Numbered from the stretch's first letter, positions 3,602-24,200 are shown. The stretch: DNA of 64,000 nt from Clostridia bacterium (GCA_026415435.1 JAOAHC010000041.1:4290-68289); one strand, 5' to 3'. Translations and numbers: made by a program. Notes: generated from the sequence alone by a model not told the origin.

Positions 3602-6600
3602 ATGAGAAATATAAAAGGAATATCGCTAATAACGTTAGTAATAACGATAATAGTTATAATTATAATATCAACTGCAGTAATACTTACTGTAACTAATAAT
3701 ATAGGAGAACCAGCAGCTAGAGCAAGATTTATGAACGACATAAGAAATGTTGAAGATGCTATCTCTTTATATAAAACAAGTAAATATGCAAATAGCCAAA
3801 GCGAAAATATAAATCCTATAGATATAGATAAGGGAATATCAGGAATAGTAGATGTAACAACTCTATCAGATGGTTTAGTAAGCCATATGGAAGAAGTATT
3901 TGATACAACTATAGATACTAAACAAGGAAAACTATACTATGTAAAAATGTCTGATTTAAATTTGAACATAAGTAGTGCACCTGCAAAAGAAGGCGGATAT
4001 ATAACAAAGAATTCAAGTATAATACAAGATATGGATACCGGTAAAGTATTTTATGAAGAAGGACAAGATATAGGTAGTAAAAGATGGTATAGTATATATG
4101 GTGGAGCAGAAGTAGCAAGAGAAGAAATACTTCCAACGTTGCAGATGGAAGCAACTCCAGCACAAGAACCAGATACAGGAGCTACTACAGAAGTAAATGT
4201 AAAAATGCTAGCAAATAATGCAAACAGGATAGAGTATAGCTTAGATGGAGAGTCATATAGCTTGTATGAAGGAAGCTTCAGAGTATATGATAATGGAACA
4301 GTATATGGAAGGGCATTAAATGAAGTAGGAGAAGCAACAGACCAGTTAGACATAGTGAATATAAAGAAAGAACCTGACGTAGAAATAGTAGCAAATCCAG
4401 AACAGAAAATAGAAAATAAACCATCAGGAAATGTAACAGTAACAATAAATACAAGAAGTGCAGATGTGGTACAATATAGTTTTGATGGTGAAACGTATAC
4501 ACCATATAATGCGCCATTTATAGTAAATACAAATGGAACAATATATGCAAAGGCAATAAACACATACGGGGAATCAGAAGCTACAATAGAGATAATAACA
4601 ATAGGAGATGAACCACCTGTAGTAATAGCTTCAAAATGGGATAATGAAAATGAAGGAAATGAACCATTACTTACAAAGGGTGAAAACAGTACCCAAAAGA
4701 TCTTAAAACCAATGGAATGGGTAGGAAATGAGTGGAAAGAGGTAACAGACTTAGATAAAGTATGGTATTCATATAGTACAGACTCACAGTATTGGGCAAA
4801 TGCGCAAAGTGCAGATGGCTCAATGTGGGTATGGATACCAAGATTTGCATATAAGATAACTAGTGGTGTACATAGTAATACAGCAGGAACAGTAGATATA
4901 AAATTCATACAAGGTGATGCAGATGCACCATCAGGATATACTTTAGCATCGGCATTTGAAGTAGAGCCAAAAGTAGGAGAAAAACTACATTTACAAGGAA
5001 TATGGGTAGCAAAATTTGAAGCAAGTAAATTATCATATAAAGATGCAAATAATAAAACTAAGTATAGAATACAAGTAAAACCAGGAGTAGTAAGCTGGAG
5101 ATCAATAAGGATGAGAGATGCATTTAATTATTGCGTAAATATGAAAACAGATAGTGCATATGGTTTTGGAACAGATGGTATAAGTGTGGATACTCACTTG
5201 ATTAAAAACGGAGAATGGGATGCTATAACATACTTGACGCAAAGTAAATATGGAACAAAAGGTCAAGAAGTATGGTTAAATAATGACTACTATTTTAAAA
5301 CAGGACGTGCAGGAAAAACTGTTTCATCTAAGTATGGAGGAATAGTTAACACAAATACATATACATACGATAATGCAAAATATGGAGTAAATGCAAGTAC
5401 AACAAAGAATGTATATGGAATATATGATATGTCAGGTGGAGCAAAAGAAATGACAGCTTCATATGTAAATAATAATCATAGATTTATAAAATATTCAGGT
5501 GGAGTATATAGCGGTTTAGAAAAGTATTTTGACAAGTATCCTTCGTCTCAATTAGATAAAGATTACGCCGCAAAATCTCCAAATTCCACAGTAAGGCTTA
5601 GTATATCAAATCAGAATTATCAGTTGTTATCAGGATTAAATGATAGTAGCGTATATAATACTAGTAGTAGTACAGATTATAGATTTTTGTCTACACAGGT
5701 AAACTCATATAGTAGTTGGTTTTCAGACTATAGTATCTATCCACAAAATTCATCTCCTTTTATTGCAAGAGGAGGTAGCAGACCAGGAAGCACAGAAAAT
5801 CCAAAAGTAGGTATATATGCATATGAAGGCTATACAGGATATGCATCATCAGGAGTAGGCTTTAGACCAGTATTATCAATAAAAGAAGAAATAGAGATTA
5901 TGCCAGATAAGGTGGCAGAACCAAGTATATATGTAACATCAAAAATTGCCGAAGAAGGAACAGATATTGAGTTTCCGGAATATGAAGATACAAGTACAGT
6001 TTTAAAAACAGGAGAAAAAGTAGTAATAGCATATCCGAAAGAAGCAGAATATATGTACTATAAAAAGTGGACTTCAACAGCTGAACCTTCTACATGGACC
6101 TTAATAAATAATAGTGATGCTAACTTAGTATTTGACGAAGCTTCAGGAATGTATTTATATAGTATTACATATATACCTAGGTCAACAAAATTTAAGGCAT
6201 ATTGTAGTAAGGGGCCAGCAGCAACAGATTCAGAAGAGGATTATTTAGAAGTAATGTATGATACAACAAAACCAGGTGTAGTAATAACAGGACCAAATAA
6301 ATCAGGTATAAAACCAGGAGAGAGTGTAACATATACTATAGTATTTAGCGATAATACTAATGAATTAAACGAAGCAATATTAAATGAGAGCGACTTATAC
6401 GATAAGATAATTGTTAAAGCAGGAACAAGTATAATATCAGAAGATGAAATAACAAAAGTAGTAGAAGCAGATGCAAATGATATAAGTAAGTGGAATGTTA
6501 CTTTAAATGTAGATTCAGGTGTTACAAGAAATATATCAGGTGTGAAAATAGAAGTTCAAGCAGGAGCAGCAGAAGATTTATCAGGCAATAAAAGTAATCT

Positions 6601-8629
6601 AAAAAGCAGCTCGTCATTTTCAGTAGATAAAGCGGCACCAACAGTATCATTCTCACCAAACGGAGGGTTAGATAAGCCACTTAGTTCAAGGGTTACAGTA
6701 AGTGATACAGGAGGAAGTGGAGTAGATCCAAATTCTCTACAATATATATGGAGTGCAAGCGAAAGCGAACCTACAAGTGGATGGAATACATTTACGAGTG
6801 GAGCACTTATAACAGGTAGTGCATCAGTATCACAATATTTATGGATAAAATGTAGTGATAAAGCAGGAAATACAACAGTAACACAGTCTAACTTATTTGA
6901 AATGGATACGACACCTCCAAATAGTCCGACAATGGTAGCAAATCCAGTAGGATGGACTAATGGAAACGTATCAGTAACAATAACATATCCATCAGACACA
7001 AAAGTAAAAGAATATAGTTTAAATGGAACAACGTGGAGTAACTATGCATCTGCAATAGTAGTAAATACAAATGGGACAACAGTATATGCAAGAGGAAAAG
7101 ATGCGTCAGGTAATATAAGTGAAGCATCTACAATAACAATAACAAATATTGACAGAACAGCGCCAACAATTACATTTGGTACAAATGGTGGTGTTGATAT
7201 GGAAACAGCAAGTACTACAGTAAATGTGACGGATGTTGGAGGAGGAGTAAATGCAAGTACATTGCAATACATATGGGATACTCAAAACTTATCTGCTCCT
7301 ACAAGCGGCTGGACATCATTTACAAATGGGGCAACATTAACAAAATCAAATTACACAACAATATATTTATGGGTAAAAGCAACAGACAATGCAGGAAATT
7401 CTGTCACTATAGTATCAAATATGTTTAAAGCTTTAGAAGTACCTTCTGCAAATAAACCAGTGTTAGCACCAGGAATGACAGCAGTAAATTGGAATGGCTC
7501 TTCATGGGTAGCTGTAGCAAATCCTGATACAAATACTACATGGTATAACTATGACGGTAAACAATGGGCAAATGCAATGACAGCGGATGGATCAATGTGG
7601 GTATGGATACCAAGATATATATATAAGATAACAAGTGGTTGGCATACTCAATATGCAAGTGAAATACAGATACAATTTACTAGGGATACAAATGATGATT
7701 GGAATAGTAGTAAAATAGGTTTAATTGACCGTTCTCCGGGTGCAAGTGCATCAAATAACAAATGGACAAATCATCCAGCATTTACATTTGGAAGCACTGA
7801 AGTAAAAGGAATATGGGTAGCAAAATTTGAAGCAGGTGGAAGTACTAGTGCTGTGGATGTAAAACCAAATGTATCAGTATTAAGAATTTTGACTATTGAT
7901 TCTATGTTCACAGCATGTAGAATTATGGAGACAAACTCAAGATATGGTTGGGGTACAAGTGGAGCTGGAATAGATACGCATATGATGAAAAATATAGAAT
8001 TCGGTGCAGCTATGTATTTATCTAGTAGTAAATATGGAAAAAATGGTGAAGTATGGGTAAATCCACTTAACAGTTTTCTTACTGGTTATTCAGGTAAAGC
8101 TGCAAACTCTGGATCTCTAGGAATAGCTTCAACTTATCCATATTATGACACAACATATGGAGTAAATGCCGGTACAACAGGAAATGTATATGGTATATTT
8201 GATTTTAGTGGTTGTACTTGGGAAAGACTTGCAGCTTACATAGATAATAACAATGCAAATCTAACAACTTATGGGGCAAGTTTATATTATGCAGATCCAA
8301 AATACAAAGACGTATATACTAAAGCAACCTCTGAGTCTATAGTAAATAACTATAACCTTGCAGCAAGTAATAAAAAAGGAGACGCTGTATATGAGACTTC
8401 AAATGTAGGCAATGGAGGATCTTCAGGACATAATCAATGGTATGGTGGATTATCAAATATGCCATATTCAAGTAGCCCTTTCTTTATGAGAGGTGACTAT
8501 AATGGGGCGGGTTATAGTGGTAGTTCTTATGGCGCATATTCACTTTATCAAACTACTGGTACAAGTTCAGGTGATATTGGTAAGTATCAAGGTTTCCGTC
8601 CTGTTCTAATAGTAGCTGACGGAATATAG
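3602..8629 (+). CDS. giant (1675 aa) membrane-anchored surface protein: prepilin-like N-terminus, Ig/Fn3-like repeats, two FGE-sulfatase/DUF1566-like (C-type-lectin-fold) domains
   Basis: Single uninterrupted ORF with a strong promoter and RBS. N-terminus MRNIKG|ISLITLVITIIVIIII followed by a pilin-like helix PAARARFMNDIRNVEDAISLY. Two copies of a ~370-aa module containing WVWIPR, GIWVAKFEA, YGI(Y/F)D(M/F)SG and GFRPVL, which resemble the FGE motifs GLYDMSGNVWEW, RGGS and GFR. Repeated ~90-aa beta-sandwich units (TAPT(V/I)(S/T)F..NGG...LQYIW...PTSGW) lie between them. Confidence 0.8.
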   Translation: MRNIKGISLITLVITIIVIIIISTAVILTVTNNIGEPAARARFMNDIRNVEDAISLYKTSKYANSQSENINPIDIDKGISGIVDVTTLSDGLVSHMEEVFDTTIDTKQGKLYYVKMSDLNLNISSAPAKEGGYITKNSSIIQDMDTGKVFYEEGQDIGSKRWYSIYGGAEVAREEILPTLQMEATPAQEPDTGATTEVNVKMLANNANRIEYSLDGESYSLYEGSFRVYDNGTVYGRALNEVGEATDQLDIVNIKKEPDVEIVANPEQKIENKPSGNVTVTINTRSADVVQYSFDGETYTPYNAPFIVNTNGTIYAKAINTYGESEATIEIITIGDEPPVVIASKWDNENEGNEPLLTKGENSTQKILKPMEWVGNEWKEVTDLDKVWYSYSTDSQYWANAQSADGSMWVWIPRFAYKITSGVHSNTAGTVDIKFIQGDADAPSGYTLASAFEVEPKVGEKLHLQGIWVAKFEASKLSYKDANNKTKYRIQVKPGVVSWRSIRMRDAFNYCVNMKTDSAYGFGTDGISVDTHLIKNGEWDAITYLTQSKYGTKGQEVWLNNDYYFKTGRAGKTVSSKYGGIVNTNTYTYDNAKYGVNASTTKNVYGIYDMSGGAKEMTASYVNNNHRFIKYSGGVYSGLEKYFDKYPSSQLDKDYAAKSPNSTVRLSISNQNYQLLSGLNDSSVYNTSSSTDYRFLSTQVNSYSSWFSDYSIYPQNSSPFIARGGSRPGSTENPKVGIYAYEGYTGYASSGVGFRPVLSIKEEIEIMPDKVAEPSIYVTSKIAEEGTDIEFPEYEDTSTVLKTGEKVVIAYPKEAEYMYYKKWTSTAEPSTWTLINNSDANLVFDEASGMYLYSITYIPRSTKFKAYCSKGPAATDSEEDYLEVMYDTTKPGVVITGPNKSGIKPGESVTYTIVFSDNTNELNEAILNESDLYDKIIVKAGTSIISEDEITKVVEADANDISKWNVTLNVDSGVTRNISGVKIEVQAGAAEDLSGNKSNLKSSSSFSVDKAAPTVSFSPNGGLDKPLSSRVTVSDTGGSGVDPNSLQYIWSASESEPTSGWNTFTSGALITGSASVSQYLWIKCSDKAGNTTVTQSNLFEMDTTPPNSPTMVANPVGWTNGNVSVTITYPSDTKVKEYSLNGTTWSNYASAIVVNTNGTTVYARGKDASGNISEASTITITNIDRTAPTITFGTNGGVDMETASTTVNVTDVGGGVNASTLQYIWDTQNLSAPTSGWTSFTNGATLTKSNYTTIYLWVKATDNAGNSVTIVSNMFKALEVPSANKPVLAPGMTAVNWNGSSWVAVANPDTNTTWYNYDGKQWANAMTADGSMWVWIPRYIYKITSGWHTQYASEIQIQFTRDTNDDWNSSKIGLIDRSPGASASNNKWTNHPAFTFGSTEVKGIWVAKFEAGGSTSAVDVKPNVSVLRILTIDSMFTACRIMETNSRYGWGTSGAGIDTHMMKNIEFGAAMYLSSSKYGKNGEVWVNPLNSFLTGYSGKAANSGSLGIASTYPYYDTTYGVNAGTTGNVYGIFDFSGCTWERLAAYIDNNNANLTTYGASLYYADPKYKDVYTKATSESIVNNYNLAASNKKGDAVYETSNVGNGGSSGHNQWYGGLSNMPYSSSPFFMRGDYNGAGYSGSSYGAYSLYQTTGTSSGDIGKYQGFRPVLIVADGI
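4814..5023 (+). repeat. intragenic DNA repeat, copy 1 (FGE-like domain A), with near-identical stretches shared with 7586..7834
   Basis: A 31-mer gatggctcaatgtgggtatggataccaagat at 4814-4844 differs by 1 nt from 7586-7616. The 27-mer ggaatatgggtagcaaaatttgaagca at 4997-5023 is identical to 7808-7834. Confidence 0.7.
7586..7834 (+). repeat. intragenic DNA repeat, copy 2 (FGE-like domain B)
   Basis: see copy 1; the high nucleotide identity in patches contrasts with the otherwise diverged domain copies. Confidence 0.7.
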
Positions 8630-14207: not shown

Positions 14208-14274
14208 TGCATACAATCATAATATATTTAATTTATAATATATTTATATTGATTAATATATTGTGAGGGTGATT

Positions 14275-15060
14275 ATGTTGAAAAAATTTTGTGTTTTGGG
14301 TACTGATAAAAGAAGTGTTAAGCTAAGAGAAATGTATATAAGTGAAAAGGTGCAAATAACAAGTTATGATAAAGCAGAAGTAGTAATAGCACCTGTACCA
14401 TTTTCAAGGGATGAAATAAATATAACTGGTGAAATACTAACATGTGATGAATTAATTAATGTTATGTCAAATACAAAGAATATTCTATTTTCAGGAGCTA
14501 TATCAGATAGTATAAAAGAAAAATTAAATCAAAATAGAATTGAATTTTATGATTTATTTGATATAGAAGAAGTAGCTATAATGAATGCTATTCCAACAGC
14601 TGAAGGTGCTATATGTCTTGCTATGGAAAATACTGAGTATACTTTGCATAATTCAAATGTATTAATAACTGGATATGGCAGAATAGGAAAAATACTTGCT
14701 AAAATGCTAGTTGGTATAGGTGCAAATGTATATTGTGAAGCTAGAAATGAAAAAGATTTGGCAATGATTGAGGCAATGGGATATAATAGTGTGAGATTGA
14801 ATGACATGGATAGTTTTTTAGGGGAGATAGACATAGTATATAATACAATTCCAACCTTAATTTTTGATGAAACCAGATTAAAGCTATTAAAAAAAGATGT
14901 TCTTATTATTGATCTTGCTTCAAATCCTGGTGGAGTTGATTTTACAAAAGCAAAAGAACTTGAAAAAAATGTTATTTGGGCATTATCACTTCCCGGAAAA
15001 GTTGCACCAGTATCTGCAGCTAAATATTTAAAAAATGCTATAGATAAGTTATTAAAATAA
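14275..15060 (+). CDS. DpaA-like protein (dipicolinate synthase subunit A family / NAD(P)-binding), with no dpaB partner downstream
   Basis: ATG at 14275 after gagggtg; central Rossmann motif ITGYGRIGKILAKML; overall layout like SpoVFA; no flavoprotein B subunit follows. Confidence 0.45.
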   Translation: MLKKFCVLGTDKRSVKLREMYISEKVQITSYDKAEVVIAPVPFSRDEINITGEILTCDELINVMSNTKNILFSGAISDSIKEKLNQNRIEFYDLFDIEEVAIMNAIPTAEGAICLAMENTEYTLHNSNVLITGYGRIGKILAKMLVGIGANVYCEARNEKDLAMIEAMGYNSVRLNDMDSFLGEIDIVYNTIPTLIFDETRLKLLKKDVLIIDLASNPGGVDFTKAKELEKNVIWALSLPGKVAPVSAAKYLKNAIDKLLK

Positions 15061-15069
15061 TAGTCATAC

Positions 15070-15098
15070 TTGAATAATTACTAAAAATGTGGTATAAT
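15070..15098 (+). promoter_or_regulatory. sigma-A-type promoter TTGAAT-N17-TGgTATAAT for the first small paralog
   Basis: extended -10 at 15090-15098. Confidence 0.5.
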
Positions 15099-15152
15099 AT
15101 TGCGATAATCTTTAAAATATCACTAAATAGATTTAGGAGGTATGTAGGAGTA

Positions 15153-15509
15153 ATGACTGATTTGTCAGAATACACTTTTGAGGGGCTTATAAAAGAAATA
15201 AAACGAAATGAATTTTTAGATTTAATCACTAATGTTCGGTTTTCTGTAATTGAAATTGAAGGAGATGTACTGAAACTAAATTTAAAAGATTGTAAATCTA
15301 TAGTAGTTGCATCGGAATTTATAATGAGTTTGTATAGGGAAATTCCAAAAGTCGAGGTTTATATAAAAGGCAATTTAAATCCGGTTGAAATAAACAAAAT
15401 ATACTTTACTTTTAATAATGTTGAAGTTGAGACTGAAAAAGGAGTGACATACCAAGATATGCTGGAGAGATTTAAACTTGACAATATTAACAAAAAAATA
15501 ACCATATAA
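15153..15509 (+). CDS. small acidic protein, paralog 1 of an unknown family (118 aa)
   Basis: ATG at 15153 after aggagg/taggag; shares a core (I/V)RF(S/K)VI..E.G.L......KS(I/F)..VA.EFI..(F/L)(Y/F)(R/K) with the next two ORFs. The listed 15087 start lies inside the promoter. Confidence 0.6.
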   Translation: MTDLSEYTFEGLIKEIKRNEFLDLITNVRFSVIEIEGDVLKLNLKDCKSIVVASEFIMSLYREIPKVEVYIKGNLNPVEINKIYFTFNNVEVETEKGVTYQDMLERFKLDNINKKITI

Positions 15510-19505: not shown

Positions 19506-21104
19506 ATGAGTTTTATAAAAATAGGAAAAAATTATTCAAATGTTATCTTAAAAACATTTTGTATATATATATTAATGTTAATATGCTCAAATATTTATAT
19601 TTGGGCTGATTCTGTTAATAATGGTACAAGTACGGCTTTAAATACTGAAAATAAAATTGATAATAATAGTTATTCAGAAATGCAGAATGTATTAAACAAT
19701 ATAAGAGAAGAAATAAATGAAATGGACGTTAAGCTACAAAAAATAAGATCTAAAAGTGAATATCAAGCATATCCAGCAGTAAGACTTAATGTTGACACCC
19801 CAATATTTGGTATATATTCTGTTACAAATAGAAGATTAAAAATAACAGAAGATGTATCACCAGCTGATATAACTAGCGGCTATTCTATAAGAGATATTAT
19901 AAAATCTAATAAGCTTAAAGTACCTAGTTTTAAAGTGGTATCTTTTGTAGTTATAACAAGAGATATAAAAATTAATAATTCTATGACTAAATCTGATTAT
20001 AATATTTGTATTAATAAACTTCTTAAGTATTTAGAAGTAGCAAAAAATATTAACAATTCAATAGATAGTCAAATAAATAATATATTAAATTCATATAAAG
20101 GTAAAGATATAATTGAACTTAAAAATAAGTTAAATGACAATTTAAATGAAATAAATAATGAAAATCAAATTGTTATAGATTCGATAAATAAACTAAACTT
20201 ACTTCAGTATGATGGAGCATATGATTATTACAAGCAATCATATGATATTAAACAAAGTGTTGATGAATTTTCAAAATTAATAAATAATTCCCTTACAAAT
20301 GATGAAAATATAAAAAATATTGAGAGTAATGTTGCAAAAATAAAATCAAGCACGGATATTCTTAAGGAGAAAGTAGAAAACTCATATAATGAAAGTATAA
20401 AAAATATTGATAAACTTAAAATGTTGACTTACGTACAACAAAAAATGGATGATCAAATTAACTATTTAAATCAATATATAAAAAATAGCCAAAAAGACCT
20501 AAATATGGGTATAGACTATACACAAAGTTTGAATATAAGTGATGCATATATTATGGATAGTAATATTATATACAATATTACATCTAGAAATATTTTAAAA
20601 GAACTTGAAAACTATAAAGATATTGTAGATTCAAAAATAATTGAACTTAGTGAAACTAATAGTTCTGATGTTCAAAATATTGATACAACTACATTAACTC
20701 AAACAGGGAATGAAATTAATGCAACAAATAAGTTAGATTCAGATCTTGAACTTATTCAAAAAATAAATACAATATATATTGATTTTTTGAATAAAACGCA
20801 CACATTTATTTTAAATAATATAAATTTTCTTAATAATAAATCAAAAAATGATATATCATATCTGACAATGAATACATCTATAGAAATATATAATTATATA
20901 GAATATGTTTATTCAAATCTACCTAATATTGTTGAAAAAACAGAGCAAAGTATAGATAAAAATAGTATATATAGTTTAAGTAATACTGTACAAAATTTAA
21001 AAATTGAACTTAATAATATAAATCAATATAGCGTACAGATTGATGGGTTATACATTCAAAACTATAAAACTACCAGTGTAGATAGGAGTAGTAATTCTAG
21101 GTAA
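19506..21104 (+). CDS. secreted Asn/Ile/Lys-rich coiled-coil protein (532 aa), hypothetical
   Basis: N-terminal signal peptide (cleavage near IWA|DS); long heptad-like low-complexity helical regions; RBS ggggatga. Confidence 0.5.
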   Translation: MSFIKIGKNYSNVILKTFCIYILMLICSNIYIWADSVNNGTSTALNTENKIDNNSYSEMQNVLNNIREEINEMDVKLQKIRSKSEYQAYPAVRLNVDTPIFGIYSVTNRRLKITEDVSPADITSGYSIRDIIKSNKLKVPSFKVVSFVVITRDIKINNSMTKSDYNICINKLLKYLEVAKNINNSIDSQINNILNSYKGKDIIELKNKLNDNLNEINNENQIVIDSINKLNLLQYDGAYDYYKQSYDIKQSVDEFSKLINNSLTNDENIKNIESNVAKIKSSTDILKEKVENSYNESIKNIDKLKMLTYVQQKMDDQINYLNQYIKNSQKDLNMGIDYTQSLNISDAYIMDSNIIYNITSRNILKELENYKDIVDSKIIELSETNSSDVQNIDTTTLTQTGNEINATNKLDSDLELIQKINTIYIDFLNKTHTFILNNINFLNNKSKNDISYLTMNTSIEIYNYIEYVYSNLPNIVEKTEQSIDKNSIYSLSNTVQNLKIELNNINQYSVQIDGLYIQNYKTTSVDRSSNSR

Positions 21105-21129: not shown

Positions 21130-21588
21130 ATGTCAAATAATAAGTCACAAAACTATGTTAATATAAATAATAGAGAAATTAATTATAAATATGATGTATT
21201 GGAAAAAATAGAATGTGGCATAGAATTAAAGGGAACAGAAGTAAAATCAATACGAGATGCCATGTGTAATTTAAAAGATAGTTTTGCTATTATAAAAAAT
21301 GGTCAAGTTGTGCTTAAAAATATGTACATTAATCCCTATGAAATGGGTAATATTAACAATTCAAATCCAACAAGAGATAGAAAATTATTACTTAATAAAT
21401 TAGAAATATTAAAACTATATAATAACCTTAAACAAGGTGGATATACACTTGTACCAAATAGAATATATACTAAAGGTAGATGGATAAAATTAGAACTTGC
21501 CATATGTAAGGGTAGAAAACTCTACGATAAAAGGCAAGCTCTAAAAGATAAACAAGCAAAAAAACAAATTAATGCATTTAAATTATAA
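21130..21588 (+). CDS. smpB: SsrA-binding protein
   Basis: GTEVKS(I/L)R, LKDSFA, NPYE and RKLLL motifs; 152 aa. Confidence 0.85.
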   Translation: MSNNKSQNYVNINNREINYKYDVLEKIECGIELKGTEVKSIRDAMCNLKDSFAIIKNGQVVLKNMYINPYEMGNINNSNPTRDRKLLLNKLEILKLYNNLKQGGYTLVPNRIYTKGRWIKLELAICKGRKLYDKRQALKDKQAKKQINAFKL

Positions 21589-21893
21589 GAGTAAGTTAGT
21601 TATTTTTATTAGTTTTTCTTGTTCAGTCATAATAGGTGTAGTTTGTAAATTCTGTTTTGCTACAGTTTGTAAACAAATACCTCTGTTATTAAATCCAATT
21701 GCAGATATAGAAAGAATATTTTGACTCAATATTAAAAAAAATTGGGACAAAATATTTTGTTCTTCTGGTAGTAAATCCTTTGTCAAAATTATAGAAAATA
21801 TGGCTGCTGCGATTACTATATCAAATCCACAATTGTTGACTGTATAACAATCTAGCGAATGGTTAGTAATGTTATCTGTAAATGTAGTATTCA
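21583..21893 (-). CDS. small Cys-containing protein Z (103 aa), third gene of a minus-strand operon
   Basis: ATG at 21893 preceded by GTGAGGA; its stop overlaps the smpB stop in a TTATAA; hydrophobic central segment; 4 Cys. Confidence 0.45.
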
Positions 21894-21920
21894 TAATAAT
21901 CCTCACTAAAAATTATATTT

Positions 21921-22214
21921 TTAATCTTCCTCTATATTTACAGAAATAGCTACTATATGTTCTTTACACTTATTAGGTAGACATATTTCCGTAGTATAAT
22001 TTGTAAATATATTTCGTATAATCGCATAAACACCATTTTGTATTAAAACTGTAGCAAAATTTTCTTCAACATTTATTACATTTAATGTAAAACAATTTTG
22101 TAAGGCTACTGTCTGAGATGTTTCAGTTATTGTAACCATCTTTCTATTTACTTCCTTAAAGCATTTATTGCAACAAGTATCCACTATACTTAGTTGAACG
22201 ATAAAATCATCCAT
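21921..22214 (-). CDS. small Cys-rich protein Y (97 aa) with an N-terminal CC.KC motif
   Basis: ATG at 22214 preceded by AAGGATGTGA; 7 Cys including TCCNKC near the N-terminus; beta-rich composition. Confidence 0.5.
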   Translation of the reverse strand: MDDFIVQLSIVDTCCNKCFKEVNRKMVTITETSQTVALQNCFTLNVINVEENFATVLIQNGVYAIIRNIFTNYTTEICLPNKCKEHIVAISVNIEED

Positions 22215-22239
22215 AAAAATCACATCCTTAATAATAAGT

Positions 22240-22569
22240 CTAATCCGAACAATAAAGATTTGAAATGCCACAAGGGGCTAGAGTTGCACCTATATAAACT
22301 CTATACGTTCCACATTCACATGGTAAATCGAATACTCTAAAACTCCCATTAGGTATATTAAAAACTGTGGCGGGTAAACTTATATCATTTGATATGGAAA
22401 TGGTGGCAACATTACCAGTTCCATTCAAAAATGTTAACTTGTATCCGAAACTTAAATCAATAACGGTATTAGCATTAACGCTTGTATGTAAATTATCAAA
22501 GTTTCTTGTAATACCATTTTGACAAGTAAGTTGTCGTATATTTAATGTATAACAGCATGAACCTTCCAT
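22240..22569 (-). CDS. small Cys-rich protein X (109 aa) with an N-terminal SCC motif and C-terminal CxC...C...C
   Basis: ATG at 22569 preceded by GAGAGG; 7 Cys; beta-strand-like N/T/S/I/V-rich sequence; no signal peptide. Confidence 0.5.
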   Translation of the reverse strand: MEGSCCYTLNIRQLTCQNGITRNFDNLHTSVNANTVIDLSFGYKLTFLNGTGNVATISISNDISLPATVFNIPNGSFRVFDLPCECGTYRVYIGATLAPCGISNLYCSD

Positions 22570-22781
22570 AATATATAACCTCTCTAATATTAAATTATGT
22601 ATTTGTAATATAATATGATAGTATTAAGTATAATGTGTATACTTTAAAATATATATTTCTTAAGTATGATAAAAATCACTTTGTAGTTAACATAAGTTGA
22701 ATTTTTATTGAGAATATGATATAATATTAGTTAGAATATTAATATTATATCAAAACTAATTGGTTTAAAGGAGAGCATAGT

Positions 22782-23165
22782 ATGGATTATTACATGCATA
22801 TTGAGAAAATAATTGAGATTATGGAGAGAAATACTGGTAATCAGAATCTTCTTATTAATGATCTTAATTCAAATGAAGGAAATAAAATTGCTTCTTCACT
22901 TGTATACTTAAAAGGCTACATTGAATCCTTAATAAATACACAGAGAATTACTAGTTTAGAAGCTACACCAATTATTACTTTTATCATAGGAAGCATATCT
23001 ATATGTAATCAGTTAAAAGTTTTCTTAGAATATATGTTGCTAGTAGAAAAAATTGCAGAAAAAGGTGTACTAGATAACATATCATCACAAAGAGAAAATT
23101 TTGAAATTATGTATGAGGTAGTAAAAGGAATAAGCAATAAGTTTTCTGATTTATATTCTTTGTAA
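22782..23165 (+). CDS. hypothetical protein (127 aa)
   Basis: RBS aaggagag; own terminator downstream; no recognisable motif. Confidence 0.45.
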   Translation: MDYYMHIEKIIEIMERNTGNQNLLINDLNSNEGNKIASSLVYLKGYIESLINTQRITSLEATPIITFIIGSISICNQLKVFLEYMLLVEKIAEKGVLDNISSQRENFEIMYEVVKGISNKFSDLYSL

Positions 23166-23173
23166 TTAAACAC

Positions 23174-23212
23174 AGAAACTATCGTAAAATTTACGATAGT
23201 TTCTTTTTTTTA
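23174..23212 (+). terminator. rho-independent terminator (gaaactatcgtaaa / tttacgatagtttc followed by T8)
   Basis: perfect 14-bp palindrome followed by tttttttt. Confidence 0.8.
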
Positions 23213-23276: not shown

Positions 23277-24200
23277 ATGTATAAATCAGGATTTGTAGCA
23301 ATAGTAGGTAAGCCAAACGCAGGTAAATCTACTTTAATTAATAAGTTAGTAGGGTATAAGGTGGCAATTACAACGCCTAAGCCTCAAACTACTAGATATA
23401 ATATAAAAGGAATATTAACGACATCTTCGTCTCAAATAATATTTATAGATACACCAGGGGTACATATGCCTAAACATAAATTAGGTGAATATATGATGAA
23501 AGGTGTATCAAACGCTATAAATGAGGTAGACGTTATAATATATTTAGTTGATGCAACAAAGTATAGAATTGATGGAGCAAATGAAAAGATTATTAATGAT
23601 TTAGTAGCATTAAATAAAAAAATTATACTTTGTGTTAATAAAATAGATAAAGTAAAAAAAGACGAATTACTTACAGTTATAAATACATATAACGAATATA
23701 TAGTAGGGTTGGGACGTAGTTTTGCTGAAATTATACCGGTTTCTGTTTATAAGGATGATGGACTTGATATTTTAGTTAAAAATGTGGAAAAGTATCTTCC
23801 AGAGGGTGATCAAATTTACTTAGATGATGAAATTACAGATATAAGTGAAAAAGAAATAGTAGAAGAGACAATAAGAGAAAAATTACTTAATAATTTAGAT
23901 GAAGAGGTACCACACGGTATAAATGTTCAAGTTGAGTCGTTTAAAGAGGTACAAGAAATTATTAATAAAGAAATTGTTAATAAGTATGATATCCAAGTAA
24001 ATATTATATGTGAAAAAGCATCTCATAAGGGTATTATAATAGGTAAGTCTGGAGAGATGTTAAAAAAGGTACGTCTACAGTCTAAAAAAGAAATTGAAAA
24101 AATGTTGGAAACAAAGGTAAGTCTAGAGCTTTGGGTAAAGGTAAGACCTGATTGGCAGAAAAAAGATATATATTTAAACAATATAAAAAATAAAATATAG
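23277..24200 (+). CDS. era: GTPase Era
   Basis: G1 motif GKPNAGKST, DTPG, NKID and a C-terminal KH domain; ~300 aa. Confidence 0.9.
   Translation: MYKSGFVAIVGKPNAGKSTLINKLVGYKVAITTPKPQTTRYNIKGILTTSSSQIIFIDTPGVHMPKHKLGEYMMKGVSNAINEVDVIIYLVDATKYRIDGANEKIINDLVALNKKIILCVNKIDKVKKDELLTVINTYNEYIVGLGRSFAEIIPVSVYKDDGLDILVKNVEKYLPEGDQIYLDDEITDISEKEIVEETIREKLLNNLDEEVPHGINVQVESFKEVQEIINKEIVNKYDIQVNIICEKASHKGIIIGKSGEMLKKVRLQSKKEIEKMLETKVSLELWVKVRPDWQKKDIYLNNIKNKI

Follow-up and report, generated by a model that had tools for sequence, protein, structure and literature searches.

The window analysed here, a 64,000-nucleotide stretch of clostridial DNA with a GC content of 27%, contains a minus-strand operon of three small genes, A, B and C, bracketed by smpB (21130..21588, plus strand) and era (23277..24200, plus strand). 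Gene A (22240..22569, minus strand) encodes a 109 aa protein that begins with MEGSCCYTL, gene B (21921..22214, minus strand) encodes a 97 aa protein that includes the segment DTCCNKCF, and gene C (21583..21894, minus strand) encodes a protein of 103 aa. The three genes correspond to locus tags N2749_05290, 05285 and 05280, each of which is annotated as hypothetical. They are closely packed, with intergenic gaps of 25 nt between A and B and 26 nt between B and C. Genes C and smpB converge, with their 3′ ends overlapping by 6 nt, and a search for a terminator between them gave nothing. A purine-rich ribosome binding site can be read from the sequence 6 to 10 nt 5′ of each start codon, with AGAGAGG at 22579..22585 for gene A, AAGGATG at 22223..22229 for gene B, and GTGAGGA at 21900..21906 for gene C, all on the minus strand. 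By sequence reading alone, none of the three products has a hydrophobic N terminus that could serve as a signal peptide. The close packing of the genes, the ribosome binding sites, and the lack of signal peptides had all been described in a first-pass annotation of this DNA, and these descriptions hold. No additional paralogs of A, B or C were found within the window. The gap between era and smpB is a variable spot, with an extra 127-aa open reading frame in the window and a helix-turn-helix gene and a tRNA-Thr gene in a related locus (L001).

Protein A has seven close cluster relatives, and searching 1.84 billion representative proteins with an A profile gave 31 matches at E ≤ 1e-3, all of them from uncultured Clostridia/Bacillota, which makes this a rare family. 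Approximately 25 of the 31 are proteins of 100 to 120 aa with the same layout as A. Several giant proteins (2231, 2099, 670, and 1281 aa) were also considered and rejected as relatives of A. They align through many weak stretches and carry Ig_7, bactofilin or S74 domains, and we read their similarity as compositional, arising from N/T/S-rich beta repeats. The broad alignment of the A family was too divergent to use for scanning loci. Metagenomes and metagenome-assembled genomes yielded 16 distinct loci, with every carrier host represented by an uncultured metagenome-assembled genome, and a B-type gene of 87 to 100 aa lies within a few bases 3′ of A in all 16. Gene C was found only where the module sits between era and smpB, which is the case in the window and in loci L005 to L010 and L015; it is absent from L001 to L004, L012, L017, L019, L023, L025, and L026. 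Half of the loci contain A and B without C. A scan of 2.9 million viral contigs found no relative of A. Together, A and B probably represent a new orphan family.

Because AT-rich genomes contain many spurious open reading frames, and because a database search with C gave a single detectable match, which was C itself, we considered the possibility that A, B, and C are chance open frames. For A and B this explanation is refuted, and for the operon overall its probability is negligible. The A and B proteins are 23 to 93% identical across the 16 loci, and the pairs in which substitutions are unsaturated have dN/dS values of 0.11 to 0.35. The first-pass annotation had named a dN/dS close to 1 in related strains as a result that would argue against its reading, and the observed values instead indicate that these open reading frames are conserved as coding sequence. 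The 31 profile matches, the confidently predicted folds described below, and the ribosome binding site at each gene also argue against chance. For C, a core motif is shared by the window and seven other loci, and tblastn detects the C gene of L015 with an E value of 2.7e-4. The three minus-strand genes are therefore real, with A and B under purifying selection.

Proteins A and B are both rich in cysteine, which accounts for 6.4% of the residues in A and 6.2% in B, compared to 1.2% in the long open reading frames of the window, an enrichment of ~5-fold. Lysine is nearly absent from A, accounting for one of its 109 residues (0.9%, compared to a background of 9.2%). An AlphaFold2 model of A (pLDDT 83, pTM 0.75) consists of eight strands that are connected mostly by turns of two or three residues. 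The best model of B (pLDDT 78) has the same strand pattern, with the limitation that it was built from two sequences only and that the five models span pLDDT values from 44 to 78. An earlier comparison of A and B profiles built from few sequences was ambiguous (probability 46%). With larger profiles of 28 and 12 sequences, hhalign aligned the two families over 94 columns with a probability of 97.4% and an E value of 1.5e-11, and A and B are therefore full-length paralogs.

The two paralogs differ in how their cysteines are arranged. In A, Cys5 and Cys6 are in an N-terminal arm, Cys16 is at the first hairpin turn, Cys84 and Cys86 are in a turn with the sequence PCECG, and Cys101 and Cys107 are in the C-terminal tail. 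The terminal arms and the cysteine-rich tail are modelled with low confidence as flexible regions outside of the core. All 28 members of the A family have a cysteine within the first eight residues, 25 of the 28 have one within the final 15 residues, and Cys16 is nearly invariant, while Cys84 and Cys86 are confined to the closest subfamily. The N-terminal arm is mostly three to five residues long, and the family is further marked by the motifs FGY and DLPxExGxYR. Protein B has no counterpart of the terminal cysteine arms of A in the profile alignment. Instead, Cys15, Cys18, and Cys83 are each present in at least 90% of the 12 B sequences aligned, and most of these sequences also have His86, which places a CxxC...CxxH arrangement at the pole of the predicted fold that holds hairpin turns 1-2 and 7-8. 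The first-pass annotation had pointed to an N-terminal Cys-Cys motif in both proteins. The motif is present in each, but the two occurrences are not equivalent, with the Cys-Cys of B (residues 14 and 15) aligning with Cys16, the residue of A at its first hairpin turn, rather than with Cys5 and Cys6, and the motif is not a family-wide feature, occurring near the N terminus in only 10 of the 28 A-family proteins.

Protein C differs from A and B. The first-pass annotation had grouped all three products as cysteine-rich and beta-rich, a description that fits A and B and does not fit C, which has three cysteines in the window and in which a 16-residue hydrophobic segment is followed by a K/N-D/N-L...EQ turn and then by a putative amphipathic helix. 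This latter segment has a helical amphipathic moment in seven of eight sequences. As read from its sequence, C is not a third beta subunit, and it looks like a pair of helices, one hydrophobic and one amphipathic, with no relationship to A or B. Of seven C-family proteins, four match the Pfam family DUF6944 at model positions 70 to 149 with scores of 15 to 19 bits (E values of 1e-3 to 1e-2). No C-family protein reaches the gathering threshold of 32 bits and C from the window gives no match, and the similarity to DUF6944 serves as a lead only. Searches of the literature for DUF6944 and PF22116 returned no papers. C is also the most variable part of the locus. The era and smpB genes that flank the module are 97 to 98% identical in DNA sequence between L007 and L008, and A and B are ~90 to 92% identical, whereas C is only 52 to 65% identical, and 51% at the protein level. 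Diversification thus has a local hot spot in this operon, most strongly in C. Faster divergence than in flanking genes is a common pattern for exposed surface components.

Upstream of gene A, the window contains the sequence CATATTATA (22609..22617, minus strand), which has the form CATAnnnTA and ends 39 nt 5′ of the ATG. An AC dinucleotide (22636-22635) is found 17 nt upstream of this box, as the core of a putative −35 element (22634..22638, minus strand) that reads ACACA in the window and TAACA in most of the related loci. The mother-cell −10 box is described as CATATTAT/CATATAAT, with sigma-K and sigma-E sharing a common −10 box and differing in the −35 box, which is AC for sigma-K and ATA for sigma-E (PMC3789822). 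The segment from 22636 to 22609 therefore has each feature expected of a promoter in the sigma-K regulon, with an AC −35 box, a spacer of 16 to 17 nt, a CATAnnnTA −10 box, and a proper distance to the start codon, and its form fits the sigma-K consensus given for both C. difficile and B. subtilis (PMC3789822). A motif this short is frequent by chance, with 12 occurrences of AC-N16/17-CATAnnnTA in the window compared to 10.1 ± 3.0 expected, and its weight consequently comes from conservation across loci. The motif is exact upstream of A in 13 of the 16 distinct loci, ending 14 to 39 nt before the start codon. The −10 box has one mismatch in L017 and L023 and two in L019, with the TAACA context of the −35 box retained in all three. 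In anchored alignments the TAACA and CATATTATA boxes are conserved as the spacer and flanks vary, and the TAACA-like context was not part of the search pattern, yet is conserved. The motif is also kept where the neighbouring genes differ, including pyk (L012), gpsA (L017, L019, and L023), and rpmB with pyk (L026). The first-pass annotation had suggested CATATTATA as a possible sigma-K-type −10 box, and the cross-locus conservation of TAACA-N16/17-CATAnnnTA bears this out. Because the −35 box is TAACA rather than the ATA of sigma-E (PMC3789822), the promoter is of the sigma-K type, and the operon is probably transcribed by sigma-K or a close equivalent, with sigma-E as a less likely alternative.

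The window encodes dipicolinate synthase subunit A (dpaA, 14263..15060), which matches the NCBIfam model NF006162 with 268.9 bits against a cutoff of 261, and on the contig of a relative (L019) gerA, gerAC, and a spore permease gene lie 2 to 6 kb from the module. Judging from these genes, the hosts are spore formers. They are probably also strict anaerobes, so it is uncertain when any disulfides would form.

The promoter also bears on a reading in which the operon is unrelated to sporulation and is instead a locus of the peptide or bacteriocin type, a toxin-immunity pair, or a cassette of mobile or phage origin inserted between era and smpB, with C as a small membrane immunity protein. Small, cysteine-rich products and a hypervariable, hydrophobic C would be in keeping with such a locus, as would the variability of the era-smpB gap, with its 127-aa open reading frame in the window and its helix-turn-helix and tRNA-Thr genes in L001. 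We nevertheless consider this reading improbable, as the conserved promoter belongs to the mother-cell class and not to the sigma-70 class, and a scan for sigma-70-type promoters gave nothing above the level of shuffled sequence. Furthermore, no modification enzyme, transporter, leader or double-glycine motif, integrase, or phage gene lies beside the module in any of the 16 loci, the viral contigs contained no relative of A, half of the loci carry A and B without C, and confidently predicted beta domains of ~100 aa are unlike peptide precursors. The narrower possibility of a RiPP or bacteriocin was rejected because maturation or export genes were found in no locus.

The sequences and models of the three proteins were compared with known families and folds. 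The first-pass annotation had proposed A, B, and C as candidate subunits of Ena-like endospore appendages (DUF3992) or of the coat, and had named CotY/ExsY among the families to compare. With hmmscan against Pfam, DUF3992 gave no match to A, B or C at E ≤ 10 and none to the 28 A-family members at E ≤ 1. More broadly, searches of Pfam and NCBIfam gave no match above threshold for A, B, C, or the whole A and C families, and the family models for CotY/CotZ/ExsY did not match. Matches to Baculo_E66, Rex, and ComFB were rejected as noise (E ≥ 0.01). Single-sequence and profile searches of PDB sequences likewise gave only noise, such as actinohivin at an E value of 0.03, and the C-family profile had no match among PDB sequences. 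A search for the F-ENA family DUF4183 gave no match, and the N termini of A (MEGSCCY) and B (MDDFIVQ) lack the hook M-P-psi-psi-x-P-psi that is the signature of F-ENA (PMC12357932). Comparison of the C-family profile with A-ENA, translated from NZ_CP013279.1, gave an hhalign probability of 0.1%. At the level of structure, Foldseek searches of the PDB with the A and B models, and of BFVD with the A model, gave nothing significant, with a best E value of 0.017 and all TM scores at or below 0.38. No Ena chain was in the top 50 of the PDB searches, although the PDB includes the structure of Ena1B (7A02) (PMC12357932). Weak Foldseek neighbours include the up-and-down barrels lipocalin, LolA, and YwiB.

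These results weigh heavily against A and B being true Ena subunits, that is, DUF3992 jellyrolls with an N-terminal Cys-Cys connector. Several features would suit that identity: A and B are adjacent paralogs of ~100 aa with an eight-strand core and a late-sporulation promoter, and cysteines are found at the N terminus (singly or as a pair), in the first strand, and at the C terminus. However, no DUF3992, PDB sequence or Foldseek match was obtained, and the N-terminal arm of the A family is three to five residues long compared to ~15 in Ena, with Cys-Cys in 10 of 28 members. The jellyroll fold envisaged in the first-pass annotation was not recovered either, with no Foldseek match at E < 0.01 or TM > 0.4. 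Turns of two to three residues between the predicted strands imply an up-and-down hairpin meander rather than a jellyroll, in which eight strands form BIDG and CHEF sheets joined by crossovers, and the predicted A and B models do not have this arrangement. We therefore regard true Ena membership as very improbable. Overall, what survives from the first-pass annotation is its reading of the operon as spore-related and expressed late in the mother cell, and membership in either the Ena/DUF3992 or the CotY/ExsY families is not supported.

The main rival to a structural role keeps the timing in sporulation and takes A and B for small beta domains that bind a metal or ligand or serve a redox function, either at work in the mother cell or kept in the spore, and that do not form structural polymers. 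The promoter evidence fits this possibility equally well. The CxxC...CxxH of B is a classical tetrad, and the positions of A that align with it cluster at the same pole of the predicted fold. A zinc or iron site, for example, might be built from the cluster of B and from Cys16, Cys84, and Cys86 of A. The weak structural neighbours noted above, being up-and-down barrels, also point in this direction. On the other hand, Cys84 and Cys86 are limited to the subfamily closest to A, and the cysteine arms and tail of A are in flexible regions outside of the core, which is typical of cross-linking arms and not of a binding site. A structural shell would also better fit the extreme depletion of lysine in A and a locus that diversifies as surface components do. 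We consider this rival unlikely.

On balance, we lean towards the explanation that A-B(-C) is a self-contained late-sporulation module that makes structural proteins of the spore surface. Conservation of the promoter provides real support for this idea, and a late mother-cell origin and spore-surface role for A and B are well supported by inference. The individual elements of the model, which are spore-surface location, disulfide lacing, polymerisation, and sigma-K dependence, are inferences. In this model, RNA polymerase with sigma-K or a close equivalent would transcribe the operon late in sporulation, and A and B, having no export signals, would be made in the mother-cell cytoplasm and laid onto the developing spore as part of an outer coat, exosporium or appendage. 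The terminal cysteine arms and hairpin-turn cysteine of A appear to be placed for forming disulfide bonds between subunits once the spore meets oxidising conditions. The outcome would be a covalently laced polymer, which the near absence of lysine from A suggests would be protease-poor. B would probably act as a partner subunit, or else start or end the polymer, and zinc or an internal disulfide may stabilise it, and C would most likely be an exposed or anchoring accessory. A more specific version of this model, which we offer as a speculative proposal with a low probability, is that A and B form a previously unseen class of spore polymer. This polymer could be a fibre or a two-dimensional lattice, heteromeric, with a beta fold that has no PDB match, the arms of A forming disulfides to Cys16 of neighbouring subunits, B acting as a nucleator or cap, and C as a tip or anchor. 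It would represent an independently evolved counterpart of Ena pili in uncultured Clostridia.

In Clostridia, the proteins of the spore surface show little conservation and most are uncharacterised, and each class of ENA described to date (S/L, F, and A) has brought a different construction of ultra-stable protein fibres. Because the module is compact, with two genes and one promoter, and has no characterised relatives and no fold match in the PDB, it is directly testable with recombinant proteins and does not require culture of the host. Self-assembly of A and B would provide a new cross-linked protein material and a new sporulation marker for uncultured Clostridia. Even without self-assembly, their conserved sigma-K-type promoter identifies the two as a new gene family of late sporulation.

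Several known systems offer a basis for comparison. CotY, CotZ, and ExsY in Bacillus and CsxA, CdeC, and CdeM in Clostridia are cysteine-rich proteins that are made late in the mother cell without signal peptides, and that assemble on their own at the spore surface, where disulfides cross-link them. A and B resemble these proteins in being cysteine-rich and lacking signal peptides, but are much smaller single beta domains with no match to the CotZ/ExsY-type Pfam families. The module is also limited to two or three genes and has no collagen-like BclA partner close by, unlike the lattice systems of the exosporium and coat. Coat genes are under sigma-K control (PMC3789822). F-ENA fibres, which occur on spores of uncultivated Clostridia, are built from DUF4183 subunits of ~100 aa that have two beta sheets and an N-terminal docking extension (PMC12357932). 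A and B are of a similar size to these subunits; however, F-ENA is not disulfide-linked, and A and B have no N-terminal hook. For C, the closest parallel in form is the alpha-helical hairpin subunit of A-ENA 'sporesilk' (Q8KNV8), which is also ~100 aa, has two helical segments, as C appears to have, and belongs to a small spore-associated cluster (PMC13111695), although C has no detectable sequence homology with A-ENA (Q8KNV8/Q8KNV7) by hhalign.

A further parallel is with Ena1A, Ena1B, and Ena3A, the S- and L-type endospore-appendage subunits (DUF3992) of the Bacillus cereus group, which assemble on spores into micrometre-long fibres that resist SDS and heat. Ena1A and Ena1B are adjacent paralogs of 117 to 126 aa with an eight-strand core, an N-terminal Cys-Cys connector, and cysteines in strands B and I (10.1101/2020.08.21.260141). 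Like the Ena proteins, A and B are encoded by adjacent paralogous genes, are ~100 to 120 aa in length without signal peptides, have a predicted eight-strand beta core, and are expected to be produced in the sporulating mother cell, with A in particular having a cysteine-bearing N-terminal arm, a cysteine in the first strand, and a cysteine near the C terminus. There are also differences. A and B have neither a DUF3992 sequence signal nor a fold match to Ena1B, and their predicted topology is a hairpin meander where that of Ena is a jellyroll. In Ena, the Cys-Cys of a flexible connector of ~15 residues bonds with cysteines of other subunits, located in their first and last strands, whereas the arm in the A family is mostly three to five residues long, with Cys-Cys in only 10 of 28 family members, and its partner B is entirely without arms. 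Finally, Ena1C is a third DUF3992 protein, whereas C has no relationship to A or B and its sequence suggests two helical segments. By analogy, A and B may nevertheless form an Ena-like, disulfide-laced polymer of beta-core subunits with terminal cysteine arms.

The A-B-C locus evolves unevenly among close relatives. Between L007 and L008, two of the related metagenomic loci, gene C (L007 6637-6856, the counterpart of 21583..21894 in the window) is either replaced or hypervariable, with a DNA identity of 52-65% in strains that are elsewhere 97-98% identical, and its dS is far greater than that of genes A and B. This combination of low identity and high dS within otherwise nearly identical strains suggests that gene C alone has undergone allelic replacement by recombination. 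Protein A (22240..22569) has an unusual composition, with one lysine and two glutamates in its 109 residues against a background of 9.2% Lys and 6.4% Glu, so that the charged residues targeted by proteases are almost absent from it. From this scarcity, protein A would be expected to resist trypsin.

Gene A directly adjoins era in most related loci, and the era-smpB gap is therefore a variable spot for insertions. In L001-L003 the gap is occupied by an HTH_3 gene and a tRNA-Thr, and in the window a plus-strand ORF of 127 aa (22782..23165), divergent from the A-B-C operon, has neither a family match nor a counterpart in any related locus. Between this ORF and era, a hairpin with a perfect 14-bp stem and T runs on either side (23174..23204) is likely a bidirectional terminator that separates the two. 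On the other side, directly upstream of smpB, lies a plus-strand gene for an Asn-rich protein of 532 aa with a hydrophobic N terminus (19506..21104). This protein matches no family in Pfam or NCBIfam, and relatives with 29-45% identity are encoded at or near the equivalent position in L001, L002, L004, L007-L009, and L015, which marks it as a conserved, Pfam- and NCBIfam-unassigned neighbor of the locus.

The plus-strand gene at 14263..15060, for dipicolinate synthase subunit A (NF006162, 268.9 bits, over cutoff; also Pfam DpaA_N), marks the host as an endospore former. Approximately 40 nt 5′ of this gene, near 14212-14221, is a mother-cell-type -10-like box, CATACAATCA, but with an AC spacing of 18 nt. 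The next ORF (140 aa, 15087..15509) matches neither DpaB nor a flavoprotein. Farther away, a plus-strand ORF of 1675 aa (3602..8629) may encode a large surface protein, its sole family match being the OmpL47-type beta-barrel domain NF047446 (49.5 bits).

In the search of 1.84 billion representative proteins, the A-family profile also matched the giant repeat proteins P0022, P0032, P0037, and P0040 (670-2231 aa), which carry Ig_7, bactofilin, or Peptidase_S74 domains. A distant link between the A family and beta-repeat adhesin modules is a possible reading of these matches; they consist of weak stretches, up to 15 in each protein, and their resemblance to the A family is probably compositional.
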